This document shows, piece by piece, positions 2,437 to 58,721 of a DNA stretch of 64,000 nt. How positions within the stretch are numbered: the stretch's first letter is position 1; every line of letters begins with the position of its first letter. The notes under the pieces are model-generated. The model had not been told where the DNA came from. It saw nothing but the letters and a program-made list of their open reading frames with translations, and searched no databases. The stretch lies in the NCBI GenBank assembly GCA_031291955.1, contig JARLIA010000015.1, positions 54,204-118,203 of the forward strand, read 5' to 3'. A program made the position numbers and the translations under genes. Origin of the DNA: Minisyncoccota bacterium. Lineage in GTDB: Bacteria; Patescibacteriota; Minisyncoccia; Moranbacterales; UBA2206.

Positions 2437-3213
2437 TCATCTTTTTCTCCCTACGCCAACTCCTCCACCGCCAAAAATTGTGACCACTTCTCGCCCAAGA
2501 GCATTGTGCAACTCCAAAAAATCATGACTTTTCTGCCATCCGGCTGTCGGCCCAGTGTAGGCAGTCGTTGGTAAATTCATGCCGGGTAGCAAGCTGCTGA
2601 TGTTAACCAGAAGTAGAACATCAATCGCCAAGGACTCAGAAGACCGTGGCGCAAAATCTTTCATTTCTCCTATGATGCGCTCTAAATATTTGCCATAGAA
2701 GTATGAAAGTGGAGTAACAAAGAGCATAGCCTGAAACAATTTCTTTTCCGGATACTCTTCGTCTCCGGGAATAACTCGCCCGCTTCCTGGAATAATTTTT
2801 TCCTCAATTTCCTTTAGGGAAAATGAACCGGGCAAAGTCCCAAGAGCAAAGTCCTCGAAATTTTTCGGTTCACCGACATTTATACGAAGAACCGGACAAT
2901 TGCAATTGGGAGCAATAATATTGTACGTCGCTCGTCTTTGCCATTTTTCCTCGTCACTCCCAACATCCTTTTCTTGTCGCATTAAAACAACAATAATTTT
3001 AGGACGTAGGATACGACAAAGGAAAATAACATGAAAGGGATTGTCCGGCACTGTAAATAGGATATCCATACCCTTCTCTACTTCCTCCCGATCAAACTGG
3101 CCAGTCTCCCAGTTGTCTAACATGATTGGAAGGATTTTTTCGAGAAAAAATCCGGTATCCAGCCTCCTCTGCGCCCAGATCTTATTCAGAAGGATAATTT
3201 TTTCTTCTTCCAT
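2437..3213 (-). CDS. Hypothetical protein.
   Basis: The ORF track gives 2437..3285. An internal ATG at 3211-3213 is preceded by a good SD (AAAAAGGAGCTGCTAAG ATG), so I prefer the start MEEEKIILLNK. No recognisable family. Confidence 0.45.
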   Translation of the reverse strand: MEEEKIILLNKIWAQRRLDTGFFLEKILPIMLDNWETGQFDREEVEKGMDILFTVPDNPFHVIFLCRILRPKIIVVLMRQEKDVGSDEEKWQRRATYNIIAPNCNCPVLRINVGEPKNFEDFALGTLPGSFSLKEIEEKIIPGSGRVIPGDEEYPEKKLFQAMLFVTPLSYFYGKYLERIIGEMKDFAPRSSESLAIDVLLLVNISSLLPGMNLPTTAYTGPTAGWQKSHDFLELHNALGREVVTIFGGGGVGVGRKR

Positions 3214-3767
3214 CTTAGCAGCTCCTTTTTTATAATCTTGGCTGCGGCATCGCAGCGACAAAATGACAAAATTATTTTTCATCACCTCATCGCTACTCCG
3301 CAGGTTTTTGAAAAGAACATTTCGCGTTTCTAAATTTTCATCCGAACGCTTTTCTAAAATTACTACAAAATAATAACCTTGGAAAAACGTGAGGGGGCAG
3401 ACTTGTGGTCCGACCCCTCAAAACCCGAAAGAACAGCTTCGTATTATTCTCAAAGAACTTTCCCTTTCGAGAAGAATGATGAAAAAAATTTCCAAAAAAC
3501 ATTCGGGATTCGATTACTTCATTGTTGTTAATAATCCCTTACGTTTTCTAATACTATTTCTCTCATCATTCTTCTCAAAAAACATTTTATTCACCGTAAC
3601 GCCCAATGATAGCACATTTTACTGTCCCTGTCAAAACAAATTGCATGATTTTGGCTAATATAAAGCTTTTTATATTTTAAGTTCAACTGATTAAGGCTTT
3701 ATACAAGCAAAAATATTCAAAAAACCGCCCACATCTAGCAAGTGGCTTAATTTACCTTTATTAAAAG

Positions 3768-3800
3768 CAAAAAACGAAGCCTCATTTAGCTTCGTTTTTC
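3768..3800 (-). terminator. Hairpin plus T-run downstream of the minus-strand tRNA-Pro/tRNA-Gly pair; it would act in either direction.
   Basis: Stem aaacgaagc/gcttcgttt with loop ctcattta. T-runs on both sides. Confidence 0.5.
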
Positions 3801-3803
3801 TTG

Positions 3804-13322: not shown

Positions 13323-13423
13323 TAATTTTAAATTTCCAATTTTGAATTTTGAATCAATTTTGAATGACAGAATGTTTTAAACATTCAAAATTAAGGCATT
13401 ATTTAAAAATTATAAATTCAGTT

Positions 13424-14956: not shown

Positions 14957-15036
14957 AGATTCATGTTAGCATGTTAGCACTTTAACATTTTAACAAAAAC
15001 AAAACGAAGTTATTAAAATGTTGACATGTTAATATG

Positions 15037-15507
15037 CTAAAATTCTTTCACAATTTTCCAAATAATTAGCGCTCCTCCTATTGTGATATAAACATCGGCC
15101 AGATTAAAGACCGGCCAGACGCGCAAATTGATGTAGTCGATAACGCAACCAAAGAATATTCTATCAACAATATTGGAAATAGCGCCTGATAGGACAAGCA
15201 AAATTCCAAATCTCAATTTTTTAAGCCAGCACTGGCTTTGGATTTTATGTTTTGATATTGGAATTTGTTTCTTATTTGATGCTTGTGATTTGTGATTTCC
15301 GGCCGTGATGATAAAAGCAGCTATTCCAAAAATCACGACAGCCAAGATAAAATATGAAAGTTTAATCCCAAATGCCAGGCCGGCGTTGCAAATATAAAAT
15401 CCGCCCCTGGAGCGGATTTCGTATTTCATGAATTGATCCAGTAAGATAAGAAAAAATCCGGATACAACAAAAAAATATCGGGCTATTTTTTTTCGTAATT
15501 CATACAT
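15037..15507 (-). CDS. lspA: Lipoprotein signal peptidase II.
   Basis: FYICNAGLAFGI and NLADVYITIGGALII are LspA boxes. The ORF track extends upstream to 15636 through non-LspA sequence; I prefer the ATG at 15507 (MYELRKK). Confidence 0.75.
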   Translation of the reverse strand: MYELRKKIARYFFVVSGFFLILLDQFMKYEIRSRGGFYICNAGLAFGIKLSYFILAVVIFGIAAFIITAGNHKSQASNKKQIPISKHKIQSQCWLKKLRFGILLVLSGAISNIVDRIFFGCVIDYINLRVWPVFNLADVYITIGGALIIWKIVKEF

Positions 15508-16381: not shown

Positions 16382-16868
16382 GGTTTAAGTATAACATGTT
16401 TTACGAAATACTAAATTAACGAAATAAAAAATATTCTTCCCGCTTTCTTTTTCGTACTTTCGCCAATTTCGTAGTTCTTAAATAACAAAAAACAGCCTCC
16501 ACGGCGTTTCTCAAAAAGTGATTTTTGGATGAAATCCGTGGGCGTCGAAGCCCGAAATAAAAATTATAGGCTGACGCCCACAGATGTTTGTCGTACTAAC
16601 ACGTGAACCGTGAATTTTATAGCCCGGGTGAGAGGCATATTCGAAATTACTTGGTCGCGTGTATTTTATGTGCGACTTTGTTGTGACGACTTATTCTGAC
16701 TTTATTCTAAGTGTCTTTTCTTCTACCGTCCTCTGGCATTACGCCTTTTGTTTTATAAAGAACTAACTTTTTATTTTTTATTTTTGTTTAAAAAGTTTTT
16801 TTATTTTTGTTTTGGGGTCCTCTGGCCAGATCAGAGGCGGCTATCGCGCGTTGGCGATAACACTTGGA

Positions 16869-16927
16869 CAGCAGAATAGTTTTCAATCGCAAATAGGGGG
16901 AAATTGCGATTGAAAACTATTCTGCCG
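16869..16927. repeat. Perfect 22-bp-stem hairpin (gcagaatagttttcaatcgcaa / ttgcgattgaaaactattctgc) with an 11-nt loop atagggggaaa. It lies inside a 770-bp noncoding region.
   Basis: Read directly from the sequence: arms at 16871-16892 and 16904-16925 are exact reverse complements. Two shorter hairpins lie immediately upstream (16815-16860). Confidence 0.6.
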
Positions 16928-17186
16928 TGTGGATTTAATTTTTAATGTTCTCACACGGTCTTTACTACTCTCCCATTATAACAAGAAAATAGGTGAAAGT
17001 CAATGCGGAATAATAAAATCAGCTTGTTTACTCGATAAATTTGATTGCGGTATCTTTTTAGTAGGGTTAGCCGCTTTCGGGTCAAATAAGAAACAAATTC
17101 ACTTCTTTCGTTCCAAATTGGAAAATGGTCGATTTTTTCTACAAGTTATCCACAGGTTATACAGAATTGTCTCGATTAGCTGTATT

Positions 17187-23746: not shown

Positions 23747-23864
23747 GAATTAAAATTTTTAATTTCCAATTTTTAATTTTTAAACAATGTCCGAATTTTC
23801 AATTTTAAATTTAATCATTGAGATTTGTTTGAAAATTTAAAATTTAAAATTGAAAATTATTTTA

Positions 23865-24687: not shown

Positions 24688-26112
24688 TGTAAAGAGGAAA
24701 TAGAAATGTCCGCTTTTGCGGGAAATAGAAATGTCCGGTTTGGACATTTTTGTTAGTTGTTAGCGTATTGGTATTTTCTCCATGGATGGTTGGCGGCTGG
24801 CCTGGATGGCACGGTTTTCACCAAAACCCATGGAACATCTTTTTCGGATATCTTTTTGGGTCCGGCTGGAAGTTGTTTGTAATTCAGATATTTCCCTCTT
24901 AATTTAAAATTGATTGTGCCATCGAACCTTTCTTCAACCGTAACAACTTCTTTTCTGAACATAGCCACCGACTGAGTCTCTTCCAGTTGGTACCAGATAT
25001 TTTTGTAGCTCAGGGTGTAGTCACTTCTGATGGTGCGCTCGTAATGTCTGGAAAATATTGAGGGGAATTGGTCTTTTTCCGATTGGGCCAGTTTTTTGTG
25101 CAGGTTGGCATCTGATCTGGGAATGACACCGAACTTGGCATTGAATTTGGGAATGAATGTTTTCTCTAAAAATTCATTGGCTTTGGCTACTGTGGAAATT
25201 TTGTTCAGGCGCAATTCTTTAATGAGTCTATCCTGTAGTGTTTTGAAAAGTCTCTCCACTCGGCCTTTGGCTTGTGAGCTGTGCGCGTTGATAACTCCTA
25301 CATTCAATTGAGTCATAGCTCTTTGAAATTGCGTAAGGGTGTCCGGATTCTCCTTGGCCAGCTTGTGGTTCATGGAATAGGTCGAAAACTTGTCCACGTA
25401 GATTTCATGGGGTTTAACGCTCTTTTCAAAGTATTCCTGCCAGAAATTAAAGGTTGGTTCTACGCCCTCATGCTCATCAAATTTTATGTGGGTAATCTTA
25501 CTGGTGGCGTCATCGATCGCGGCCAGCAGGCAGCATTTTTGACCCCTGTCCTCAAACCAGTATTCATAGGAACCGTCATATTGTTCCAACTCTCCAAAGG
25601 CGGATCGCCTTTGTCGCCAAGCGCGGTATTCCTGTTTCTTTTTTCTTCTTGGTTTCCATAATTCTTCCGCAATCATAATGACGCGGATTGTTTTGGCATC
25701 TCTTTTAATCCGGTGAACTTCATCCAGTTTTTCAGCTGCGAATGTCGGCCCGAAATCCGGATAATGTTCGTGCAGCAGTTTTTTGATTTTTTCAGTTTCT
25801 TTTTCCGGCAACTTTCTTTTGCTGGGCTTGCCTCTGCCGGCATGAATCAATCCTTGTAGTCCATTTTTGGCGACTTTCTTTTTTAATCGGCGGATGTGCC
25901 TGTCTGTCAGGTTGAGCATCTCAGCTGCTTCGATTCCTTTGATTTCTTTTTTAATGGCTTTTTGGATGATGTCATAGCGGCTAGCTTCTTTTTGGCTCAT
26001 GATAATGTGCTTGTCCATTGAGTTGATATTAGTTGATTGAACTAATATCTTAACTGGTTAGGACGGACATTTCTACTTCCCGCCACTAGGACATTATCAT
26101 TTCCGTGTAACA
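24688..26112 (-). mobile_element. Insertion sequence of the ISNCY family (IS1202 group), 1425 bp, with about 50-bp imperfect terminal inverted repeats.
   Basis: Left end (from 24688) is tgtaaagaggaaatagaaatgtccgcttttgcgggaaatagaaatgtccgg. Reverse complement of the right end (to 26112) is tgttacacggaaatgataatgtcctagtggcgggaagtagaaatgtccgtcc. The element is flanked by an identical 17-bp direct repeat agactggccagaatttc (24671-24687 and 26113-26129). It carries a single transposase ORF. Confidence 0.85.
24753..26018 (-). CDS. ISNCY-family transposase (HTH plus DDE integrase core).
   Basis: The N-terminus MSQKEASRYDIIQKAIKKEIKGIEAAEMLNLTDRHIRRLKKKVAKNGLQGLIHAGRGKP is characteristic of IS1202/ISNCY transposases. 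The C-terminal part has DDE-type integrase-core features. Confidence 0.8.
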   Translation of the reverse strand: MDKHIIMSQKEASRYDIIQKAIKKEIKGIEAAEMLNLTDRHIRRLKKKVAKNGLQGLIHAGRGKPSKRKLPEKETEKIKKLLHEHYPDFGPTFAAEKLDEVHRIKRDAKTIRVIMIAEELWKPRRKKKQEYRAWRQRRSAFGELEQYDGSYEYWFEDRGQKCCLLAAIDDATSKITHIKFDEHEGVEPTFNFWQEYFEKSVKPHEIYVDKFSTYSMNHKLAKENPDTLTQFQRAMTQLNVGVINAHSSQAKGRVERLFKTLQDRLIKELRLNKISTVAKANEFLEKTFIPKFNAKFGVIPRSDANLHKKLAQSEKDQFPSIFSRHYERTIRSDYTLSYKNIWYQLEETQSVAMFRKEVVTVEERFDGTINFKLRGKYLNYKQLPAGPKKISEKDVPWVLVKTVPSRPAANHPWRKYQYANN

Positions 26113-27364: not shown

Positions 27365-27685
27365 CTAATCTTCCAAAATCATTCTCAGTCTTTTCACCTC
27401 TTCCGCCAACAGTCCCTCGTTTTCATATTCCCCGTGATGCCGCGTATCATTGCCATAGGTCTCTTTTTTCTGGTCCAGATGAATGTTGATGGCCATATCC
27501 GCCCCGGTAATTTTAACATACATATGAAACCTGGGATAGCCCGAAGCTGAAAACGGCCGAATAAAACTCATTTCATTCCCTTCATTCCGTTGAAAAGCAT
27601 ACCCCGCCCGACGGAGCATATTGACTGGATTTTCTTTTATACCCTTAAACTCCAGCTGCATATTTTTAAACAATTTTACTTTCAA
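27365..27685 (-). CDS. Hypothetical protein (106 aa), translationally coupled to folD.
   Basis: Its start overlaps the folD stop (ATGA). No recognisable domain. Confidence 0.4.
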   Translation of the reverse strand: MKVKLFKNMQLEFKGIKENPVNMLRRAGYAFQRNEGNEMSFIRPFSASGYPRFHMYVKITGADMAINIHLDQKKETYGNDTRHHGEYENEGLLAEEVKRLRMILED

Positions 27686-28563
27686 CTCGACAAATTCCTG
27701 GCTGCCGTAATCGTATTTTTCAACAGCATAGCGATCGTCATCGGCCCGACGCCACCCGGCACCGGAGAAATCGCACTGGCAACATTTTTCACATTTTCAA
27801 AATCCACATCCCCGACCAACTTGCCATCCGCCATCCGGTTGATTCCGACATCGATCACAGCACTTCCCGGTTGTACCATATCGGCCGAGATTAGTCCAGC
27901 TTTCCCCGTTGCCACTATGAGTATTTCCGCCCGCAAAGTTTTTTCTTTCAAATTACGCGTCCGGGAATGACAGACCGTTACAGTTGCGCCGGCATTGATG
28001 AGCAATGCCGCCAGGGGTTTCCCCACAATATTACTCCGCCCGACTATGACACAATCTTTCCCCGCCACCTCAATATTAGAGCGTTTCAAGAGTTCCAGAA
28101 TCCCGCCGGGCGTGCAGGGCAAAAATCGAGGCCCGTCCGCATCGCCACGCGAAGCGTTGCGGGCGGACTGGCCGATTAACAATCTCCCTGCGTTTTCCGG
28201 ATGGAAACAATCCACATCCTTTCGCGGATCGATCGCTTCGATGATTTTTTGCGTTTCAATATGTTTCGGCAACGGCAACTGCACCAGAATACCGTGAATA
28301 TTTTCATCATCGTTTAACCTGGAAATTAGTTCCATTAATTTCGATTGAGAAATATTTTCTGCCAATTCGTAGCTTGCTGATTTTATTCCCACTTCTTCGC
28401 AATTTCTTTTTTTATTGGCGACATAAATCCGCGAAGCCGGATCACTCCCGACTAAGACCACCGCCAGTCCCGGTGTCATTCCATTTTTTCCCATTTCCAA
28501 AATTTCCGCCTTGAGCTCAAGCTTTATTTCCTCCGCTATTTTTTTCCCATCTAAAATTTTCAC
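27682..28563 (-). CDS. folD: Bifunctional methylenetetrahydrofolate dehydrogenase / methenyltetrahydrofolate cyclohydrolase.
   Basis: KILDGKKIAEEI...YVANKKRNCEEVGI...GILVQLPLP...HSRT...DVGINR is the FolD signature. The ORF track start at 28590 is a TTG. I prefer the GTG at 28563, which gives MKILDGKK as in other FolD proteins; the start codon remains uncertain. Confidence 0.88.
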   Translation of the reverse strand: MKILDGKKIAEEIKLELKAEILEMGKNGMTPGLAVVLVGSDPASRIYVANKKRNCEEVGIKSASYELAENISQSKLMELISRLNDDENIHGILVQLPLPKHIETQKIIEAIDPRKDVDCFHPENAGRLLIGQSARNASRGDADGPRFLPCTPGGILELLKRSNIEVAGKDCVIVGRSNIVGKPLAALLINAGATVTVCHSRTRNLKEKTLRAEILIVATGKAGLISADMVQPGSAVIDVGINRMADGKLVGDVDFENVKNVASAISPVPGGVGPMTIAMLLKNTITAARNLSS

Positions 28564-28581
28564 AATAGTTTTTGTATATAC

Positions 28582-28727
28582 GCTAAGCAAGAGATATTTT
28601 TAAAAAATTCCTGTTTGAGAATACGCTTTTTCTTCAAAATTTTCCTGTGACCGCCTTTGATTGAGGGAAAATTTTGAAAAGAAAAAGCAGTGTTCGAGTT
28701 AATTTTTTAAAAATATCTCTTGCTTAG
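28582..28727. repeat. Long nested inverted repeat (about 146 bp) filling the fhs-folD spacer.
   Basis: Outer arms gctaagcaagagatatttttaaaaaatt (28582-28609) and aattttttaaaaatatctcttgcttag (28701-28727) match 27 of 28. The inner arms ttcaaaattttcc (28633-28645) and ggaaaattttgaa (28666-28678) are perfect. The gctttttctt / aagaaaaagc pair extends the stem. Confidence 0.7.
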
Positions 28728-28740
28728 ACGGCTGAACAAT

Positions 28741-30411
28741 TTAGAACAATCCGGAAATTTTCCCCTCCTCGTCCACATCAATATTCTCCGCCGCCGGCAC
28801 TTTCGGAAGACCCGGCATGGTCATGATGTCGCCGGCCAGCGCCACCACAAATCCCGCGCCGTTTGAAAGACGCAACTCAGAAATATTGAGCGTGAACTTT
28901 TTCGGCCGCCCTAAAACTTTCGGATCATCTGTCAGAGAATATTGAGTCTTAGCGATACAGACAGGCACCTTATCCAATTTTTCCTGCTCCAACTTTTCCA
29001 TCTGCTTTAGAGCTTTTCCGCTAAACACGACTTTTTCCGCGCCATAAATTTTTTGGGCGATCGTTTCAATTTTTGTTTTCAAGTGTTGAGTCTCGGAATA
29101 GAGAAACTTGAAATTGGATTTTTTCTTTTCGAGCGTTTCCAAAACTTTTTTGGCCAGCTCTTCTCCGCCCGCGCCGCCATGCGCCCAGACTTCCGAAATC
29201 TCCGCTTCCACTCCCATAGCTTTGCATTTTTCCAAAATCAATTTTATTTCCGCCCGCGTGTCGGTCGGAAAAATATTGATCGCCACCACAATCGGCACCC
29301 CAAAACGCTTGAGATTTTCAATGTGCTTTTCCAAGTTCCCGATGCCTTTTTTGAGATAAGCCGTACTCGGGATCGCCAGCGCTTCCTTGTCCACTCCACC
29401 GTTATATTTTAAAGCTCGCACCGTGGTCGTCAGTACCACCGCGTCCGGTTTCAAGTTTGCTGCCCGGCATTTGATGCCAAAAAATTTCTCCGCCCCCAGA
29501 TCCGCTCCGAAACCGGCTTCAGTAATGAAATAATCTCCCAGCTTCAAGCCGTAACGCGTCGCCAAAACACTATTGCACCCATGAGCAATGTTGGCAAACG
29601 GTCCGCCATGGATGAGGACCGGCGTGTGTTCCAATGTTTGTACTAAGTTGGGTTTTAGCGCGTCTTTCAAAACAGCCGTCATCGCCCCGGCCGCTTTCAG
29701 TTCCCGGGCATAAACCGGCTCACCTGCGAAATTATAAGCGACGATAATATTTTCCAAACGTTTTTTAAGATCAGCCAGATTTTCGGCCATACAAAGAATG
29801 GCCATCACTTCCGACGCGACCGAAATATTAAACCCGTCTTCCCGCGGCGTGCCCTGCGCTTTTCCGCCCAAGCCCGAAACAACGAACCGCAACTGCCGAT
29901 CATTGAGATCAAGACATCTCTTCCAAACAATCTGGCGCGGATCAATTCGCAGCTCGTTGCCTTGGAAAATATGATTGTCGATCAAGGCTGCCAAAAGATT
30001 GTTGGCGGTCGTCACAGCGTGGATGTCGCCGGTGAAATGTAGATTAATGTCTTCCATCGGCACAACCTGGGCATATCCCCCGCCGGCCGCCCCGCCTTTT
30101 ATCCCCATACATGGCCCGAGCGACGGCTCCCGCAGAGCCAGCAGCGTTTTTTTTCCAAGCTGATTCATCGCCATCGCGAGACCGACAGAGGTGGTCGTCT
30201 TTCCCTCCCCGGCCGGCGTTGGACTGGTGGCTGTCACTAAAATTAATTTGCCATTTTTATTATTTTTTATCCGTTCCCAGAGCGCCGGCTTAAGTTTGGC
30301 TTTATGATCACCATAAAGCTCCAACTCATTTTCCTGGACGCCGGCCTCAGCAGCGATTTCTTTTATCGGCTTCATCTCCGCCTCTTGGGCGATTTGGATG
30401 TCACTTTTCAT
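28741..30411 (-). CDS. fhs: Formate--tetrahydrofolate ligase.
   Basis: 556 aa, collinear with FTHFS, with the P-loop [16 protein letters not shown]. Confidence 0.95.
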
Positions 30412-35574: not shown

Positions 35575-37200
35575 ATGAAAACGATAAGAAAAATTTGGAG
35601 AAACATAAAAATCCAACCTGATACTTGGCTTTTCTGTGGTTTTTTATTAACTTTTACCTTAAGTGTCCGGAAAGTGTTTTTTTACTTTCCAAACCAAGGA
35701 ACTTTCAATGAATACACAGGCATATATTTATATACCTCGGATATCTTCCTATTTCTAGCTATTTTTAGCTACTTTACTATATTATGCAACAACAAAGAAT
35801 TTATGTCAATGTATAAGCTGTGGATAACTAAACTTATTCACAATTTATCCCTTCTAATTCCGCTTTTTATAGTTATCCTATCTTTCCTTTCAATTCTTTG
35901 GTCTCAAAACAAATCGATCGCCGAATATCAATCCATTAAGCTATTCGAATTTTATTTGCTTTATTTATACACATCTTTAAGGGTTATTCCATATTTTTTA
36001 TCTCGTAATTCAAAATTGTTCCACGTGGAACAATTTATAACTTTGATTGTCGGAATAGGTTTTATTCAAAGTATTATTGGGGTAGCCCAATTTTCCCTGC
36101 AGCATTCAATAGGATTGATTTGGCTCAAAGAAAGCATCATTTCACCCAGCATTCCAGGCGTGGCCAAAATAATCTTAGATAATCATAAAATCATCCGGGC
36201 CTATGGGTTAATGCCACACCCCAACATTCTAGGTGGGTTTCTTAGCCTTTGTATTATTTTACTTTTATATCTCACCAGAATATTCCACGGCCAAAACCAA
36301 GAACCACACAACAACACTCAAATTGTTCCACGTGGAACAATCAGTGCAAGTACCAGCAAGCCCCAAAAAAAGACTGACTATCCCTACATTTTATTAAAAA
36401 AGTCCCTCTTTAAAAATAAATGGCTTATTTACTGCATTTTTTTAGTACTTGCCCTAGGTCTATTACTCACTCTTTCTAAGTCAGCAATTCTGGGATTATT
36501 CTTAGCGCTTGTATATATCTTTATAATTGTTCCACGTGGAACAAATGCGACACTTGGGAATCAGCTGCTAATAAATTTCAAGCGACAAATATACAGCCTC
36601 AAAGAAATGTTCCACGTGGAACATTCGCGAATTTTCATAATTTCACTGGCAATTATCATTATCTCATCATTTCTAATTCTAAAACCCAGCCTGCATTCGA
36701 TATTTATACAATCGCTTGAAGAACGGGGAATTTATCTCGATATTTCATATCATGCGATCATAGCCAATCCTCTTATTGGAATTGGCGCTGGTCAATTCGT
36801 CTGGAAAATGCAGGATTTTTCCAGCATGATTCTATCATCCTGGCAATATCAGCCAGTTCACAATGTATTTCTTCTTATTTGGAGTGAATTGGGAATTGTT
36901 GGATTGGGATTATTTACTTGGTTAATTTGGACATTGTTTTATTCTTCAGAGTCACCAATTGTTCCACGTGGAACAATTGGTGAAAAAACAATTGCTACAA
37001 AAGAAAATCTAGCAGGGGATAGCATTGCTATATTAGATAATACTTTTCATGTTTTGTCAACAGAATCAATCCTGCCTTATTTTAAAGCAATCTTCCTTAG
37101 TTTTTTATTCATCATGCTTTTTGACCACTATTTTTGGGATATCCAGCAGGGAAGCTTGATGCTCTGGATGGTTATGGGAGTCATCGCTGGAATAGAATAA
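35575..37200 (+). CDS. O-antigen ligase (Wzy_C) family polytopic membrane protein carrying five in-frame palindromic repeat insertions.
   Basis: At least 10 TM helices and the Wzy_C signature IRAYGLMPHPNILGGFL. The encoded IVPRGT (three times) and FHVEQ/FHVEH (twice) peptide segments coincide exactly with the DNA palindromes. Confidence 0.65.
   Translation: MKTIRKIWRNIKIQPDTWLFCGFLLTFTLSVRKVFFYFPNQGTFNEYTGIYLYTSDIFLFLAIFSYFTILCNNKEFMSMYKLWITKLIHNLSLLIPLFIVILSFLSILWSQNKSIAEYQSIKLFEFYLLYLYTSLRVIPYFLSRNSKLFHVEQFITLIVGIGFIQSIIGVAQFSLQHSIGLIWLKESIISPSIPGVAKIILDNHKIIRAYGLMPHPNILGGFLSLCIILLLYLTRIFHGQNQEPHNNTQIVPRGTISASTSKPQKKTDYPYILLKKSLFKNKWLIYCIFLVLALGLLLTLSKSAILGLFLALVYIFIIVPRGTNATLGNQLLINFKRQIYSLKEMFHVEHSRIFIISLAIIIISSFLILKPSLHSIFIQSLEERGIYLDISYHAIIANPLIGIGAGQFVWKMQDFSSMILSSWQYQPVHNVFLLIWSELGIVGLGLFTWLIWTLFYSSESPIVPRGTIGEKTIATKENLAGDSIAILDNTFHVLSTESILPYFKAIFLSFLFIMLFDHYFWDIQQGSLMLWMVMGVIAGIE
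36013..36036. repeat. Copy 1 of the TTGTTCCACGTGGAACAA palindrome, extended to 24 bp as aaattgttccacgtggaacaattt. Encodes KLFHVEQF.
   Basis: Read directly from the sequence: a perfect self-reverse-complement. Confidence 0.9.
36322..36341. repeat. Copy 2 of the palindrome (attgttccacgtggaacaat). Encodes QIVPRGTI in a different codon phase.
   Basis: Perfect palindrome; core 18-mer at 36323-36340. Confidence 0.9.
36527..36544. repeat. Copy 3 of the palindrome (ttgttccacgtggaacaa). Encodes IVPRGT.
   Basis: Perfect 18-bp palindrome. Confidence 0.9.
36606..36625. repeat. Copy 4, the variant aATGTTCCACGTGGAACATt, 62 bp downstream of copy 3. Encodes EMFHVEHS.
   Basis: Perfect 20-bp palindrome whose core differs from the other copies at the outer two positions only. 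Confidence 0.9.
36952..36983. repeat. Copy 5, extended to a 32-bp perfect palindrome (tcaccaattgttccacgtggaacaattggtga). Encodes SPIVPRGTIGE.
   Basis: Perfect palindrome; core 18-mer at 36959-36976. Confidence 0.9.
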
Positions 37201-37269: not shown

Positions 37270-39726
37270 TTATAAGACAGTGCTGGCCGAAACCTTATCA
37301 CCTGGCTGCGGGCGCATCACCCGAACACCTTGAGTGGCGCGACCAAGGGATGAAACACTGGAAAGGGGAATGCGAATAATCTGACCGCGCTCGGAGGTAA
37401 GGATGAGATCTGCGTCAAGAGCATCAACATTAATGATATCCGCACCAATCATTTTTCCGGTCTTAGTCGTGATTACGGCCGTTTTAATGCCGGAACCGCC
37501 GCGCTTTTGAATTTTGTAGGCCTTAAGATCCGTTCGCTTGCCGTAACCATTTTCCGTAATGACTAAGATTTGATTGCCTTTTTGATTCTTAAGGACGACA
37601 TCCATGCCGACCACTTGATCGTCCTTTCTGAGTTTGATTCCGCGCACTCCGGCCGCCGAGCGCCCCATCGGACGCACATCCGTCTCACGAAAGCGGATCG
37701 CTTGTCCACCCCAAGTGGCAATGGCTACTTCATCTGAACCGGTCGTAGCATCAACCCAGCGAAGCGCATCACCTTTTTCCAAATTGATAGCAATGAGGCC
37801 AGAACGACGGACATTTTCAAATTCATCTAGCGAAGTTTTTTTAACTGTTCCCATTTGGGTCGCCATAAAAAGATACTTGTAATTATCATCTTTGCCAAAA
37901 GCAATGATGGCGGTCACAGTCTCGTCTTGAGAGAGCGACAAGAAATTGACAACAGATTGCCCCTTAGCAATTCGTGACGATTCCGGAATCTCATAAGCCT
38001 TGGTTTGGAAAACTTTGCCCGTGTTGGTGAAAAAGAGAAGATTGTCATGAGCCATCACGCCCAAAACCTTTTGAATTTCGTCACCTTCTTTGGTAGTGGC
38101 ACCCATCACGCCCTTTCCGCCGCGTTTCTGAACGCGATAAACGGACGGGTTCATCCTTTTAATATAGCCTCCCTTGGAAATAGTGATAATGGCTTCTTCA
38201 TTGGGAATCAAGTCTTCCTGCTTAAATTCGGTAACACCGGATTTAATAATCTTGGTCTTCCGTTCGTCGCCATATTTTTCTTTGACCTTGCTGAGTTCAT
38301 CCTTCACAATCCCAAAAATTTTTGTTTCGCTTTTGAGAATGGCTTCCAATTCCGCAATGAGCCGGAGTTTTTCCTCAAGTTCGTCCTCGATCTTCTTTCT
38401 TTCAAGGCCGGCCAGAGTTTGCAGGCGCATTTCCAAAATAGCGGTCGTTTGCCGATCGGAAAGCTTGAATTTTTTCATCAAATTTTCGTGGGCGATTTCT
38501 TTGGTGGCGGATTTTTTGATCGTTTCAATGACCGCATCAATATTATCCAGGGCAATTTTGAGTCCTTCCAAGATATGCGCCCGATCCTTGGCTTTTTGCA
38601 AGTCAAATTTGGTGCGCCGCACGACCACAATTTTTCGGTGTTTCACATATTCCTCCAAAATGCTTTTCAAATTGAGGACTTGCGGCTCGATGCCATCAAC
38701 CAAGGCCAACATATTCACGCCGAAATTCTTTTGAAGGTCAGTCATGGAATAGAGCTTGTTGAGGACTTTCTGGGGATAAGCGTCCTTTTTTAGATCTACC
38801 ACAATCCGCACTCCGTCTTTATCCGACTCGTCGCGCAAGTCTCTGATGCCGACAATTTTTCCTTCTCGCACCAGATCGGCAAGCTTTTCGATAAGCGTCG
38901 CCTTATTGGTGGCATAAGTCATTTCTGTAACAATGATTTGGAAAGCGCCCGCCTTGGTTTCCACAATTTCGGCCTTTCCGCGGGTCAAAATCTTGCCACG
39001 ACCAGTACGATAGGCTTCTAAAATGTCTTTTTTATTATAAATAATTCCTCCAGTTGGAAAATCCGGGCCCTTAATGAACTCAGCCAGATCTTCCACACTG
39101 GCCTCCGGGTTATCGATCAAGTGATTGATGCCGTCCACCAGCTCGCTCAGATTGTGAGGCGGGATGTTAGTGGCCATGCCGACCGCGATGCCCATTGTTC
39201 CATTAAGAAGCAATTGAGGAAGACCAGCCGGCAAAACAGTCGGTTCTTTGTGGGCTCCGTCAAAATTAGGCACGAAATCAACCGTGTCTTTTTCGATATC
39301 AAAAAGCATTTCTTCAGCGATCGTCGAGAGTTTAGCTTCTGTATAACGATAAGCTGCCGCAGAGTCGCCGTCCATGGAGCCGAAATTTCCTTGACCCTTA
39401 ACCAAGGGATAGCGCAAAGAAAAATCTTGAGCCATTCTCACCATAGACTCGTAAACAGCACTATCTCCGTGCGGGTGATATTTTCCCAAAACTTCTCCAA
39501 CCACCGTGGCTGATTTCCGGAATTTGGCATTAGCGCGGAGACCGGTCGACCACATGGAATAGAGGATGCGGCGATGAACCGGCTTCATGCCATCCCGAAC
39601 GTCCGGAAGGGCGCGCGCCACAATGACACTCATCGCATAATCAAGATAGGACTGGGAGATTTCGGCGGTTATTTCTTTGTCTTTGATGTTCTTATTATGA
39701 TTGTCGAACAAATTTTCTTTCGGCAT
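37270..39726 (-). CDS. gyrA: DNA gyrase subunit A.
   Basis: 818 aa. Active-site region AAMRYTE-like ([11 protein letters not shown]), the GyrA box and C-terminal beta-pinwheel repeats. Confidence 0.95.
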
Positions 39727-53686: not shown

Positions 53687-54020
53687 ACATGGCTGAATCT
53701 TGCTATGTGATTGAGACGTTAAATTCGTCAGGACTTGCTCAAACAAACATAGAGGAATTATTGGCATCTCGAGAATCGGCTTATCTCATCCGTTTTTAAT
53801 GTATTATTCTCCTAAATCAAAGCCCTACCTTAATCTTGAAAGGCAGGAGGATAGGTGGCACAACACGGAGCAAAGATTGATTCTTTGCAAGTACCTGTAG
53901 TTCTTTTACCACTGGGTTCAGGCGGGTTCGCATACACTGCGCGGCTCGCCTTTTTTATTTCTACAAAAATACGAAAATTAACGGTCTGAAAGTTTTTTGC
54001 TATAGTTTTGTCATAATGAT

Positions 54021-54239
54021 ATGCGCAAAATTAGTCTAAAAAGCGTGGTTTGGAAGGAAGAGAGACATTACGTCGCCCAGTGTTTAAACGTGGATGTTTC
54101 CAGTTTTGGGAAAACCAAAAAAGAAGCACTGACGGCTTTGGATGAAGCACTGGAATTGTATTTCGAAGATAAAAAAGTTCCGAAAGCCGCGAAAATTGAA
54201 AGGCCGGAACTGGTCAATCTATCCATCTGCCATGCCTAA
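54021..54239 (+). CDS. hicB: HicB-family antitoxin (UPF0150).
   Basis: 72 aa; HYVAQCLNVDVSSFGKTKKEALTALDEALELYFED matches the HicB N-terminal RNase-H-like fold. Confidence 0.7.
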   Translation: MRKISLKSVVWKEERHYVAQCLNVDVSSFGKTKKEALTALDEALELYFEDKKVPKAAKIERPELVNLSICHA

Positions 54240-54451
54240 ACTATATTCCTCTTCTGAAATTATAAAAGTCCTGCAAAATCGGGGCTTTTATTTATATTTC
54301 CCAAAAGGGTAGCCACGCCAAATTCAGAAAAACCGGCAACTCGACGCTGACTGTCATTGTTCCGGCCGGCAGAAAAGAGATTCCCCTTGGAACTTTTCGA
54401 TCGATCCTGCGCCAGACCAGTCTAACGCTGGAGGAGTTTGAGAAAAAATGA
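54232..54451 (+). pseudogene. hicA: hicA toxin gene disrupted by a +1 frameshift in a G-run.
   Basis: Frame 1 reads MPKLYSSSEIIKVLQNRGFYLYFPKG then a stop. The next frame continues GSHAKFRKTGNSTLTVIVPAGRKEIPLGTFRSILRQTSLTLEEFEKK then a stop, which is the HicA core (GSH..F...T..VP.H..EI..GTL.SIL.Q). Deleting one G in aaaaggg restores a single about-72-aa HicA ORF. Confidence 0.7.
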
Positions 54452-54499
54452 ATCCTGCCTTATCTCCCTGGACAAAAAACCTTTTGTGTTATATCGTTA

Positions 54500-54577
54500 A
54501 TCCATAACCAACCTTACCTAGCCGACGCCGGTTTTACCCGGGGGATTCCCGCAACGGGCGTCTGGCCGAAAAAAACT
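54500..54577 (+). promoter_or_regulatory. Structured rpsO 5' leader, a candidate S15 autoregulatory element.
   Basis: Stems gacgcc/ggcgtc and cccggg/cccg...gg sit within 60 nt of the rpsO start, where S15 operators sit in other bacteria. Confidence 0.4.
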
Positions 54578-54847
54578 ATGGCTCTCAACGCCAAGCAAAA
54601 AGCCAAGATCACCAAAGACGTGGTCCGGCACGAGAAAGACACCGGTTCGCCGGAATATCAAGTCGCGCTTTTCACCGAGCGGATCAAGAAATTGACGGCG
54701 CATCTCAAAAAGAACGCCAAGGATTTCCACTCCCGCCGCGGACTCTTAAAAATGGTTTCCAAGCGAAAGAAGCTAATGGATTATCTCAAAAAAACGAACG
54801 AAAAAGCGTATAAAGCACTGATTAAGAAGCTTGGCTTAAAGGGCTAA
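54578..54847 (+). CDS. rpsO: 30S ribosomal protein S15.
   Basis: [11 protein letters not shown]...[55 protein letters not shown] matches S15. 89 aa. Confidence 0.93.
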
Positions 54848-54855
54848 ATCAACTT

Positions 54856-57576: not shown

Positions 57577-57761
57577 AGTAGCAAAGTTATTTTACTGGGA
57601 CACTTTTATTTTAACACATAATGCCTATCAATAAGTCAATTACTCAAATTTCTAATTTCTAATTTTCAATTTCTAAACAATTTTCAATGATTGAATTATC
57701 AAACCAGTTTTTAATTGAAAAATTAAAAATTGTTTGAAAATTGCAAATTGAAAATTGAAAA

Positions 57762-58721
57762 TTATTCCACCTTCCATCCATCTTCCGTTTCAACTATCTT
57801 GCCCTTGATTTCAAATCCGCTGGCCAGCTTATGGCCGCCGCCGCCGAAAAGGGCAGCAATTTTTGAAACATCCGCGCCTTTATATTCCTCACTCCGAAGA
57901 CTCCCTTTGATGACACCGCCTTCCCGTTCGGACAATATTAAGGAAAATTTGGTGCCTGGGACGGTATTCAGGATTCCAGCCACCTGAGAAATGTCATCGG
58001 TCCCGGCATCGCACTCATCCAGTTCTTGCTGAGTGAGAACGGAAACAATCATGCCGTTTTCCGGATTTATCTTGGCTTTTTCAAAGGCTTTTCCCCAAAG
58101 TTTCAGGGTGGAAATTTTTTTATTAGTAAAAGTCATTTCCACGATTTTGGCCAGCGGAGCGCCCAGTTTCATGAGCTGTGAGGCAATTTCCATTACGCGC
58201 GGCGTGGTATTGGAATGCTGGAACATGCCGGTGTCGCCCATGATACCGAGCATAAGATAGGTGGCCATCTGGCGATTGAGTGGAATCTTTTGGCTTTCGA
58301 AAAAATTGAAAACAATTTCGCAGACCGAAGAGAAGGCCGGGTCGATAATGTTGATGTCGCCAGTCAGCGTGATGTCCGGATGATGGTCAAGGATGGCAAT
58401 GACCGGCTTCTCGCCAAACTGGTCTTTGATTTTGTGAAAACCGCGTTCGACAGAGTCGGCGGCGATAACCAGATCATATTTAGCCAGATCAAGATGGGCC
58501 GGATATTCGAAATGATTCTGCGACAAGGGCAAAAGATATTCAGGAAAGGGATCAAGACACGCTACATCCGCGTTTTTCCCGATATTTTTGATATATTCAT
58601 GGAGCGCCAAAACAGATCCGGTGGTGTCAGAATCGGGACGCGAGTGAGCGAAAAGAAGAATATTTTCGGAATTTAAGATGGCGTAATTTAGAGTGTGAAA
58701 CTCTTTGGCGAAGTTTGTCAT
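57762..58721 (-). CDS. nrnA: DHH/DHHA1 bifunctional oligoribonuclease / pAp phosphatase (NrnA-like).
   Basis: HSRPDSDTTGS, DHH and GGGGH motifs. 319 aa. Confidence 0.8.
   Translation of the reverse strand: MTNFAKEFHTLNYAILNSENILLFAHSRPDSDTTGSVLALHEYIKNIGKNADVACLDPFPEYLLPLSQNHFEYPAHLDLAKYDLVIAADSVERGFHKIKDQFGEKPVIAILDHHPDITLTGDINIIDPAFSSVCEIVFNFFESQKIPLNRQMATYLMLGIMGDTGMFQHSNTTPRVMEIASQLMKLGAPLAKIVEMTFTNKKISTLKLWGKAFEKAKINPENGMIVSVLTQQELDECDAGTDDISQVAGILNTVPGTKFSLILSEREGGVIKGSLRSEEYKGADVSKIAALFGGGGHKLASGFEIKGKIVETEDGWKVE

Follow-up and report, generated by a model that had tools for sequence, protein, structure and literature searches.

In enterobacteria, the REP/BIME and ERIC elements act as mRNA stability barriers and bring about differential expression of adjacent cistrons, for example of malE-malF. 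The Correia elements (CREE/NEMIS) of Neisseria also act at the level of the transcript: CREE repeats present in mRNA fold into a hairpin, and binding or cleavage of this by RNase III alters the expression of neighbouring genes (PMC2649163). Inverted repeats may also be products of replication; template switching creates perfect stems (PMC8794818) and expands inverted repeats (PMC13100816).

The palindrome considered here fills most of the spacer between fhs and folD in a 64-kb stretch of DNA (referred to below as the window) from uncultivated bacteria, probably Patescibacteria, of a group that is poorly studied and poor in Shine-Dalgarno sequences. It is like the Correia elements in its length (~100-155 bp in the latter), its long terminal inverted repeats (~26 bp) and its intergenic, transcribed position (PMC2649163). 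Unlike CREE, which form a conserved family of 100-250 copies per genome and insert at TA, the palindrome occurs once in all data, has no sequence relationship to them, and is made in part from ancestral flank. With REP/BIME and ERIC it shares the character of an imperfect palindrome within an operon; those elements, however, are multi-copy and belong to unrelated taxa, REP being shorter and ERIC conserved in sequence, whereas no family is detectable here. The folate-gene context and the location in the 5′ region of a folate gene recall the THF and THF-II riboswitches, from which the palindrome differs in the lack of a covariance-model match, the lack of conservation and the architecture of a rod-like hairpin.

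The locus also resembles template-switch, or quasi-palindrome, mutations (Ripley-type model; Mönttinen & Löytynoja 2022, PMC8794818), in that adjacent sequence appears to have been copied as its reverse complement in one lineage. As in the inverted-repeat expansion described in PMC13100816, a shorter repeat would have become a longer, perfect one, with a stem that was perfect at once. Documented template switches, in contrast, mostly involve from a few to ~20 nt within existing sequence, while here the switch would have taken place on top of a 117-nt insertion. Our main reading, to which we assign a probability of about 60%, is that the palindrome is a young, lineage-specific DNA insertion whose repeat was then extended by template switching, and that it is no conserved regulatory element. 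If so, it offers a natural snapshot of the birth of a hairpin, in which a long, perfect RNA hairpin would have appeared within an operon in one or a few steps.

The fhs-folD spacer and its palindrome

The features of the locus, from the upstream to the downstream member of the gene pair, are as follows.

28741..30411, minus strand: fhs, formate-tetrahydrofolate ligase, 556 aa, upstream member of the pair; full-length match to Pfam FTHFS (E = 5.4e-270)
28564..28740, minus strand: fhs-folD spacer, 177 nt, 29.9% GC against ~45% GC for the genome
28701..28727, minus strand: fhs-proximal outer arm (5′ in the mRNA), 27 nt, CTAAGCAAGAGATATTTTTAAAAAATT, 100% complementary to 28583-28609
28714..28727, minus strand: X, CTAAGCAAGAGATA, which makes up the outer 14 nt of the fhs-proximal arm; ancestral spacer sequence
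28597..28713, minus strand: core, 117 nt, AT-rich and quasi-palindromic, with its own 13-nt terminal inverted repeats TTTTTAAAAAATT / AATTTTTTAAAAA; absent from all relatives
28625..28688, minus strand: inner hairpin, with a stem of 21 bp (28625-28645 / 28666-28688) that includes a 2-nt bulge, and a 20-nt apical loop (28646-28665)
28610..28624, minus strand: 3′ side of the internal loop, 15 nt; its 12-nt partner is 28689-28700, the two sides being asymmetric and only partly complementary
28583..28609, minus strand: folD-proximal outer arm, 27 nt, which includes X′ (TATCTCTTGCTTAG) as its outer 14 nt (28583-28596)
28575..28582, minus strand: junction CGTATATA between X′ and the conserved leader; relatives have a single G in its place
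28564..28574, minus strand: conserved leader CAAAAACTATT, directly 5′ of the folD GTG, with no Shine-Dalgarno sequence; unpaired beside the hairpin
27682..28563, minus strand: folD, 293 aa, GTG start, downstream member of the pair; matches to Pfam THF_DHG_CYH and THF_DHG_CYH_C

Both genes lie on the minus strand, and the transcript is therefore the reverse complement of the window. Read 5′ to 3′ on the transcript, the spacer is TAA attgttcagccgt CTAAGCAAGAGATATTTTTAAAAAATT aactcgaacact GCTTTTTCTTTTCAAAATTTTCC ctcaatcaaaggcggtcaca GGAAAATTTTGAAGAAAAAGC gtattctcaaacagg AATTTTTTAAAAATATCTCTTGCTTAG cgtatatacaaaaactatt GTG. The folD product in the NCBI annotation is the identical 293 aa, and KILDGKK is the FolD N-terminus, which can be aligned with the relatives. 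A consensus scan found neither a sigma-70-like promoter nor an intrinsic terminator within the spacer; this is consistent with co-transcription of fhs and folD, which it does not prove. The ORFs that overlap the spacer are chance ORFs of 24-48 aa, together with a TTG upstream extension of folD.

The palindrome is real and far beyond chance. Its arm never occurred twice in 100 shuffles of the window, and the minimum free energy (MFE) of its RNA is -59.2 kcal/mol compared with -22.5 +/- 3.5 for shuffles (z = -10.4); the corresponding value for the DNA fold is z = -11. The outer stem has pair probabilities of ~1.0 in a 377-nt context. The whole palindrome measures 145 bp, with its outer arms 91 nt apart, and the perfection of these arms contrasts with the imperfect middle formed by the internal loop. 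In the mRNA, the hairpin would begin 13 nt past the fhs stop, and its last base lies 19 nt short of the folD GTG. The interval of the original prediction, 28564-28740, coincides exactly with the spacer defined by the gene coordinates. The nested palindrome described there stands, as does its perfect 13-bp inner pair, which we locate at 28633-28645 / 28666-28678 as part of the 21-bp inner stem, and the stable mRNA hairpin that it placed before folD is borne out by the MFE of about -59 kcal/mol. Smaller corrections concern the total length, given as ~146 bp and found to be 145 bp, and the arms, described as 28 bp with 27/28 matching; these consist of 27 bp without a mismatch, followed by a 1-nt bulge and two more pairs.

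Relatives and the ancestral half of the stem

An identical spacer in the same orientation is found in four assemblies: the window, L001 (Logan SRR23300979), L002 (GCA_031291895.1) and L120 (Logan SRR23300977). Since these carriers are 100% identical over 2-8 kb, they are silent on selective constraint. The FolD relatives are MAG proteins, one of which (60% identity) is labelled 'Patescibacteria group'. The nearest other lineages have much shorter spacers.

L003, L122 and L123: FolD 82% identical; spacer 40 nt, no palindrome
L004: FolD 78% identical; spacer 28 nt, no palindrome
L010: FolD 72% identical; spacer about 25 nt, no palindrome
L011: FolD 67% identical; spacer about 45 nt, no palindrome

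In the comparison of spacer lengths envisaged in the original prediction, the palindrome is absent from L003, L122, L123, L004, L010 and L011. Synteny is kept in the relatives, in the order cca, hypothetical gene, (yjbQ), fhs, folD, 98-aa ORF, rluD-like gene and rplS, and their spacers fold no better than shuffles. A long-range pairing between the fhs stop and the folD start, considered as a form of conserved coupling, does appear in the MFE folds of the relatives but was rejected, as its z values against shuffles range from -0.7 to +1.0.

More distant loci with fhs directly upstream of folD, which come from a metagenome background at 50-58% identity and were used for spacer lengths only, have spacers of 15-51 nt, with the exception of L051. 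In the distant organism represented by this locus, the fhs-folD spacer (L051 3751-3998) is 246 nt long, unrelated in sequence, and folds at -89 kcal/mol compared with -64 +/- 5 for shuffles. A gap of 184 nt separates fhs (1060-2730) from folD (2915-3754) in P0007 (67% FolD identity; JGI 3300075153, a 4,807-bp contig); in its nearest relative, P0008, the contigs begin 8-20 nt upstream of folD, which makes the spacer comparison uninformative. The presence of fhs itself is variable: L118 (2551-3864) has yjbQ followed directly by folD, without fhs, and in the P0010 lineage (L106-L115) folD is found in a wholly different context.

The branching order of the closest lineages is indicated by an insertion within folD.

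28129..28164, minus strand: in-frame insertion in folD, 36 nt, GC-rich, GCCCGCAACGCTTCGCGTGGCGATGCGGACGGGCCT, encoding ARNASRGDADGP (residues 134-145, 12 aa)

This 12-aa insertion, the ends of which are the short inverted repeats GCCCG / CGGGC in the DNA, is common to the window and L003/L122 only and is absent from all other relatives. The two are therefore sister lineages, which gives the tree ((window, L003/L122), L004), with L010 and L011 further out. It should be noted that 25 nt are missing from the 5′ coding region of folD in L003 (~1490-1500), with the result that the frame is shifted and the gene is called from an internal ATG. The same region is intact in L122 (5010-5040) and L123 (275-305), which represent the same species in other samples, so that judging from these sequences the loss in L003 may be either a population variant or an assembly error.

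The relatives make it possible to distinguish directly which half of the outer stem is ancestral and which is the copy. In palindrome-free L003, L122 and L123, X is present at the same position (fhs stop to CAAAAACTATTGTG) and in the same orientation as in the window. Thus, the spacer of L122 reads TAA attgtttgactag CTAAGCAAGAGATA tgcaaaaactatt GTG, and that of the window TAA attgttcagccgt CTAAGCAAGAGATA (117 nt) TATCTCTTGCTTAG cgtatata caaaaactatt GTG. A degenerate X, CTAGCAGATGTG / cgtCTAGCAGATGTGcaaaaactattGTG, is found in the spacer of L004. On the folD side, X′ (28583-28596) matches the reverse complement of X (28714-28727) at every base, and none of L003, L122, L123, L004, L010 and L011 has a counterpart of X′. 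These alignments show that X is ancestral, and because X occurs in relatives that have no palindrome, the folD-proximal copy X′ is the new inverted duplicate. Compared with L122, the window is longer by a net 137 nt, added right after X and consisting of the 117-nt core, X′ and then CGTATATA, which replaces a single G. Given the tree above, parsimony favours one gain, on the branch leading to the window; loss of the palindrome in the sister lineage would be a less likely course of events.

The age of the insertion can be judged from the neighbouring coding sequence. At four-fold degenerate sites, the window and L122 are only 54-62% identical (~40-45% diverged), yet all 27/27 arm pairs are perfect; the outer stem is therefore either much younger than the split of the two lineages or actively homogenised. 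We infer from this contrast that the insertion event is young, its time being poorly bounded, as even the nearest relative is far removed at neutral sites. X lies within a stretch around the folD start in which conservation is raised: identity peaks there in all three pairwise comparisons, and the leader CAAAAACTATT is identical in L003, L004, L122 and L123. The location of X within this block explains its 15/15 identity without recourse to a transposon end. No Shine-Dalgarno sequence precedes folD in any of the three closest lineages.

Origin of the palindrome and rival explanations

The history that we propose starts from an ancestral spacer of ~40 nt, composed of the stop codon, 13 nt, CTAAGCAAGAGATA (X), TGCAAAAACTATT and GTG. 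A 117-nt AT-rich quasi-palindrome with 13-nt terminal inverted repeats would have entered directly after X. The nascent strand would then have folded back on this existing inverted repeat and copied onward, producing X′; with this template switch, an inverted repeat of 13 bp would have grown to 27 perfect base pairs. In total, ~137 nt (the core, X′ and 8 junction bases) would have been added in the window lineage. The template-switch step itself we infer from X′, which is an exact reverse complement of the nearby ancestral X: an inverted copy of a pre-existing flank is the signature of such an event, and it points to extension of the repeat by replication template switching. A single four-point event on the ancestral spacer does not account for the whole change. 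Neither the ancestral spacer nor its flanks offer a template for the 117-nt core and CGTATATA, and a separate insertion, hence at least two events, is therefore needed. Read-through into the left flank (…CTTAG-ACGG…), which would be expected of a template switch, is not seen at this junction, where X′ is followed by CGTATATA. As to the source of the core, we considered local duplication of the fhs 3′ end or the folD 5′ end and rejected it, the best local alignments reaching z <= 2.4 against shuffles; no significant similarity to the core was found in the rest of the window, the fetched loci or any collection searched.

The palindrome may instead be a MITE copy with 27-bp terminal inverted repeats that was mobilised in trans by a transposase, in the manner of Correia, ERIC and RUP elements. 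We regard this as unlikely but far from negligible. A length of 145 bp, long perfect terminal repeats, AT-richness and an intergenic position within an operon are all typical of MITEs, as is a non-coding sequence below ~300 bp (the ORFs of 24-48 aa being due to chance). A 3-bp direct repeat, CGT, flanks the palindrome, possibly by chance. The lineage does take up mobile DNA, given that an insertion sequence (IS) absent from the relatives lies 2.5 kb away.

About 24689-26111, minus strand: insertion sequence with an ORF (24753-26018) for a 421-aa transposase with an HTH domain; inverted repeats 24718-24737 / 26064-26083

This IS occupies the interval between the rluD-like gene and rplS, and the orthologous site in L003, L004 and L122 is without it. 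Its transposase is apparently single-copy in the data reached, in which only the same locus from another run was found. The arms of the palindrome, however, are unrelated to the ends of this element, the only IS in the window, which are GCGGGAAATAGAAATGTCCG.

The presence of X in the relatives weighs against the mobile-element account. The outer 14 nt of one arm are pre-existing spacer, so a simple transposon insertion is insufficient; the 'empty' site of the relatives already contains the outer 14-15 nt, and CGT is the only direct repeat at the flanks of the palindrome. A proponent may answer that an older copy was deleted and left these 14-15 nt behind. For Correia elements, fragments have in fact been documented at orthologous sites that are otherwise empty (PMC2649163). 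The window minus 145 bp and L003 minus 8 nt also leave two 32-nt spacers that can be aligned without gaps at 72% identity. The mobile-element account meets a difficulty of timing. Had the element inserted before the window/L003 split, its 54 arm bases would have remained unchanged while neutral sites diverged by about 40-45%; had it inserted after the split, the 15/15 match to X in L003, L122 and L123 would be left unexplained.

Within the data covered, copy number also speaks against a mobile family. No second copy or fragment of the arm exists within the 64-kb window, and none was found in the public collections searched; the palindrome is single-copy in all data reachable, which for the source genome means ~64 kb only. 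In the GTDB representative genomes, a collection that evidently does not contain the source genome, the arm gave 5 single chance 19-mers in unrelated phyla, and a 23-mer of the arm had no match in the JGI metagenomes. Fourteen IMG/VR matches to the arm were discarded, all of them being inside phage genes that encode EARDIFN/K and lacking a partner arm; the inner stem had no match in IMG/VR, and blastn searches of plasmid and phage collections returned none. The label 'MITE-like' that was offered as one candidate for this element thus remains unproven, with no second copy in 64 kb or the collections and with X, its outer 14 nt, predating the insertion. Should further copies be present in the full genome, a MITE family would be defined in this bacterial group.

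Regulatory explanations fare worse. A riboswitch or attenuator controlling folD, that is, a cis-regulatory RNA for folate one-carbon genes, would suit the 5′ region of folD, the folate operon and the very stable predicted structure, and we nevertheless hold it to be most improbable. A gathering-threshold Rfam scan of the whole window passed only tRNAs. When 401 nt around the spacer (28450-28850) were scanned at E <= 10, THF, THF-II and other cis-regulatory families were missing from the 25 matches; these were to generic plant and animal miRNA-precursor models, at 12-35 bits compared with gathering scores of 50-230, and were dismissed as reflecting hairpin shape only. The structure is absent from every relative examined, leaving neither conservation nor covariation. 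It forms an almost perfect rod, in which there is neither a multi-helix junction nor a ligand pocket, and it has no terminator U-tract and does not sequester the folD start codon or its leader. Instead of the GC-rich stem and U-tract of an intrinsic terminator, the stem is followed by CGUAUAUACAAAAAC. The THF-type alternative of the original prediction finds no support in these scans, in agreement with its first preference for a novelty at the DNA level over a riboswitch, no Rfam family coming near threshold. Its further suggestion of a regulatory role falls by its own terms: it held that a palindrome that is unique and absent in close relatives would favour a recent insertion, and this is what we find.

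A control site acting at the DNA level, be it a protein-binding operator, a cruciform or an inverton whose 27-bp repeats are recombined by an invertase, we deem highly improbable. Perfect inverted repeats do enclose 91 bp, and bending or strand opening would be made easier by the A/T tracts. The adjacent genes, however, include neither a regulator nor an invertase, and the operator also proposed in the original prediction goes unsupported, there being no neighbouring regulator and the 91-bp spacing of the arms being atypical. Inversion of the enclosed segment, which is quasi-palindromic, would change little; all four assemblies have one orientation and none has the inverted core, there is no sigma-70-like promoter inside the palindrome, and the element is not conserved in relatives. 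At the level of these assemblies, the both-orientation state, nearby invertase and internal promoter of an inverton are thus lacking.

Some amplification and assembly methods are known to produce palindromic chimeras, and the palindrome might be a chimeric inverted duplication of this kind. We consider the chance of this vanishingly small. The same sequence is present in two NCBI MAG assemblies and in the Logan assemblies of SRR23300977 and SRR23300979, and identity across four assemblies from different pipelines rules out an assembly artefact. Moreover, the palindrome is nested, imperfect and made of non-genic sequence, not a perfect inverted duplicate of flanking genes. In sum of the evidence on its distribution, the palindrome is private to one strain-level lineage; it is no riboswitch and no conserved operator, and it is not demonstrably a MITE. 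A palindrome located before a folate gene is, in this case, neither a riboswitch nor a conserved regulator, and it should not be annotated as such.

Predicted effects on the mRNA, and other repeats in the window

By the insertion proposed here, the fhs-folD mRNA would gain a self-contained, rod-like hairpin of about -59 kcal/mol. Modelling predicts that it is neutral for folD initiation. The mean unpaired probability of positions -18..+12 is 0.56 in the window with the insertion and 0.51 when the insertion is removed in silico, compared with 0.53 in L122 and 0.43 in L004. Masking of the folD start, by which the original prediction would have coupled or decoupled folD translation from fhs, is not to be expected of a hairpin that ends 19 nt upstream of the GTG and leaves accessibility at 0.56 vs 0.51. 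In the absence of a U-tract, the hairpin should not terminate transcription either.

If the hairpin has any effect, by analogy with known elements this would likeliest concern the fate of the mRNA, that is, its processing or stability. RNase III-type cleavage calls for at least ~20 bp of uninterrupted double-stranded RNA, and the predicted stems of 27 bp (perfect) and 21 bp, with a pair probability of ~1, provide it. Judged by its form, the hairpin may be an RNase III substrate or an exonuclease barrier like Correia and REP hairpins, and as such it could allow the fhs and folD segments to differ in stability. That it is neutral and tolerated is no less likely.

A Shine-Dalgarno-like motif precedes only 7/46 predicted gene starts in the whole window; the upstream regions are A/T-rich instead. 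This suggests Shine-Dalgarno-independent initiation in this organism, which probably depends on an unstructured, A-rich leader. A conceivable, if very doubtful, role for the hairpin is that it has been retained as a ribosome shunt, by means of which ribosomes terminating at the fhs stop reach the Shine-Dalgarno-less folD start. The stem would bring stop (13 nt) and start (19 nt) to an effective distance of 32 nt, about the ancestral spacing. Such a shunt, if true, would be a bacterial counterpart of the shunting of ribosomes across a stable stem, and the locus would be a natural case, with a date, in which template switching gave rise to a structured RNA domain.

Other AT-rich inverted repeats are found in the window between same-strand genes or tRNAs, at 57647-57763, 14963-15043, 13338-13408, 16868-16928, 3465-3580 and 23794-23858. 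Among them are arms of 52 nt that are 79% complementary and two pairs of 25-nt arms, one at 96% and the other, with a 66-nt loop, at 88%. None of these repeats is related to the fhs-folD palindrome in sequence, and this genome may have a general tendency towards long hairpins between genes. The stretches 53687-54855, 16382-17186 and 3286-3803 (1169, 805 and 518 nt) contain no ORF of >= 90 aa and no gathering-threshold Rfam match, and they have strongly negative folding energies; they could be small genes, pseudogenes or undescribed RNAs.

A palindrome of another type, TTGTTCCACGTGGAACAA, occurs in five copies (one with 2 mismatches) within 1 kb (36016-36976). The sites, at 36016, 36323, 36527, 36607 and 36959, fall in different reading frames of an ORF for a Wzy_C-like membrane protein (35575-37200), which adjoins gyrA (37270-39726). 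The core of the motif, TGTTCCACGTGGAACA, is identical to chromosomal ParB-binding parS sites, and from its sequence the array looks like a dense, origin-proximal parS cluster within a coding gene.
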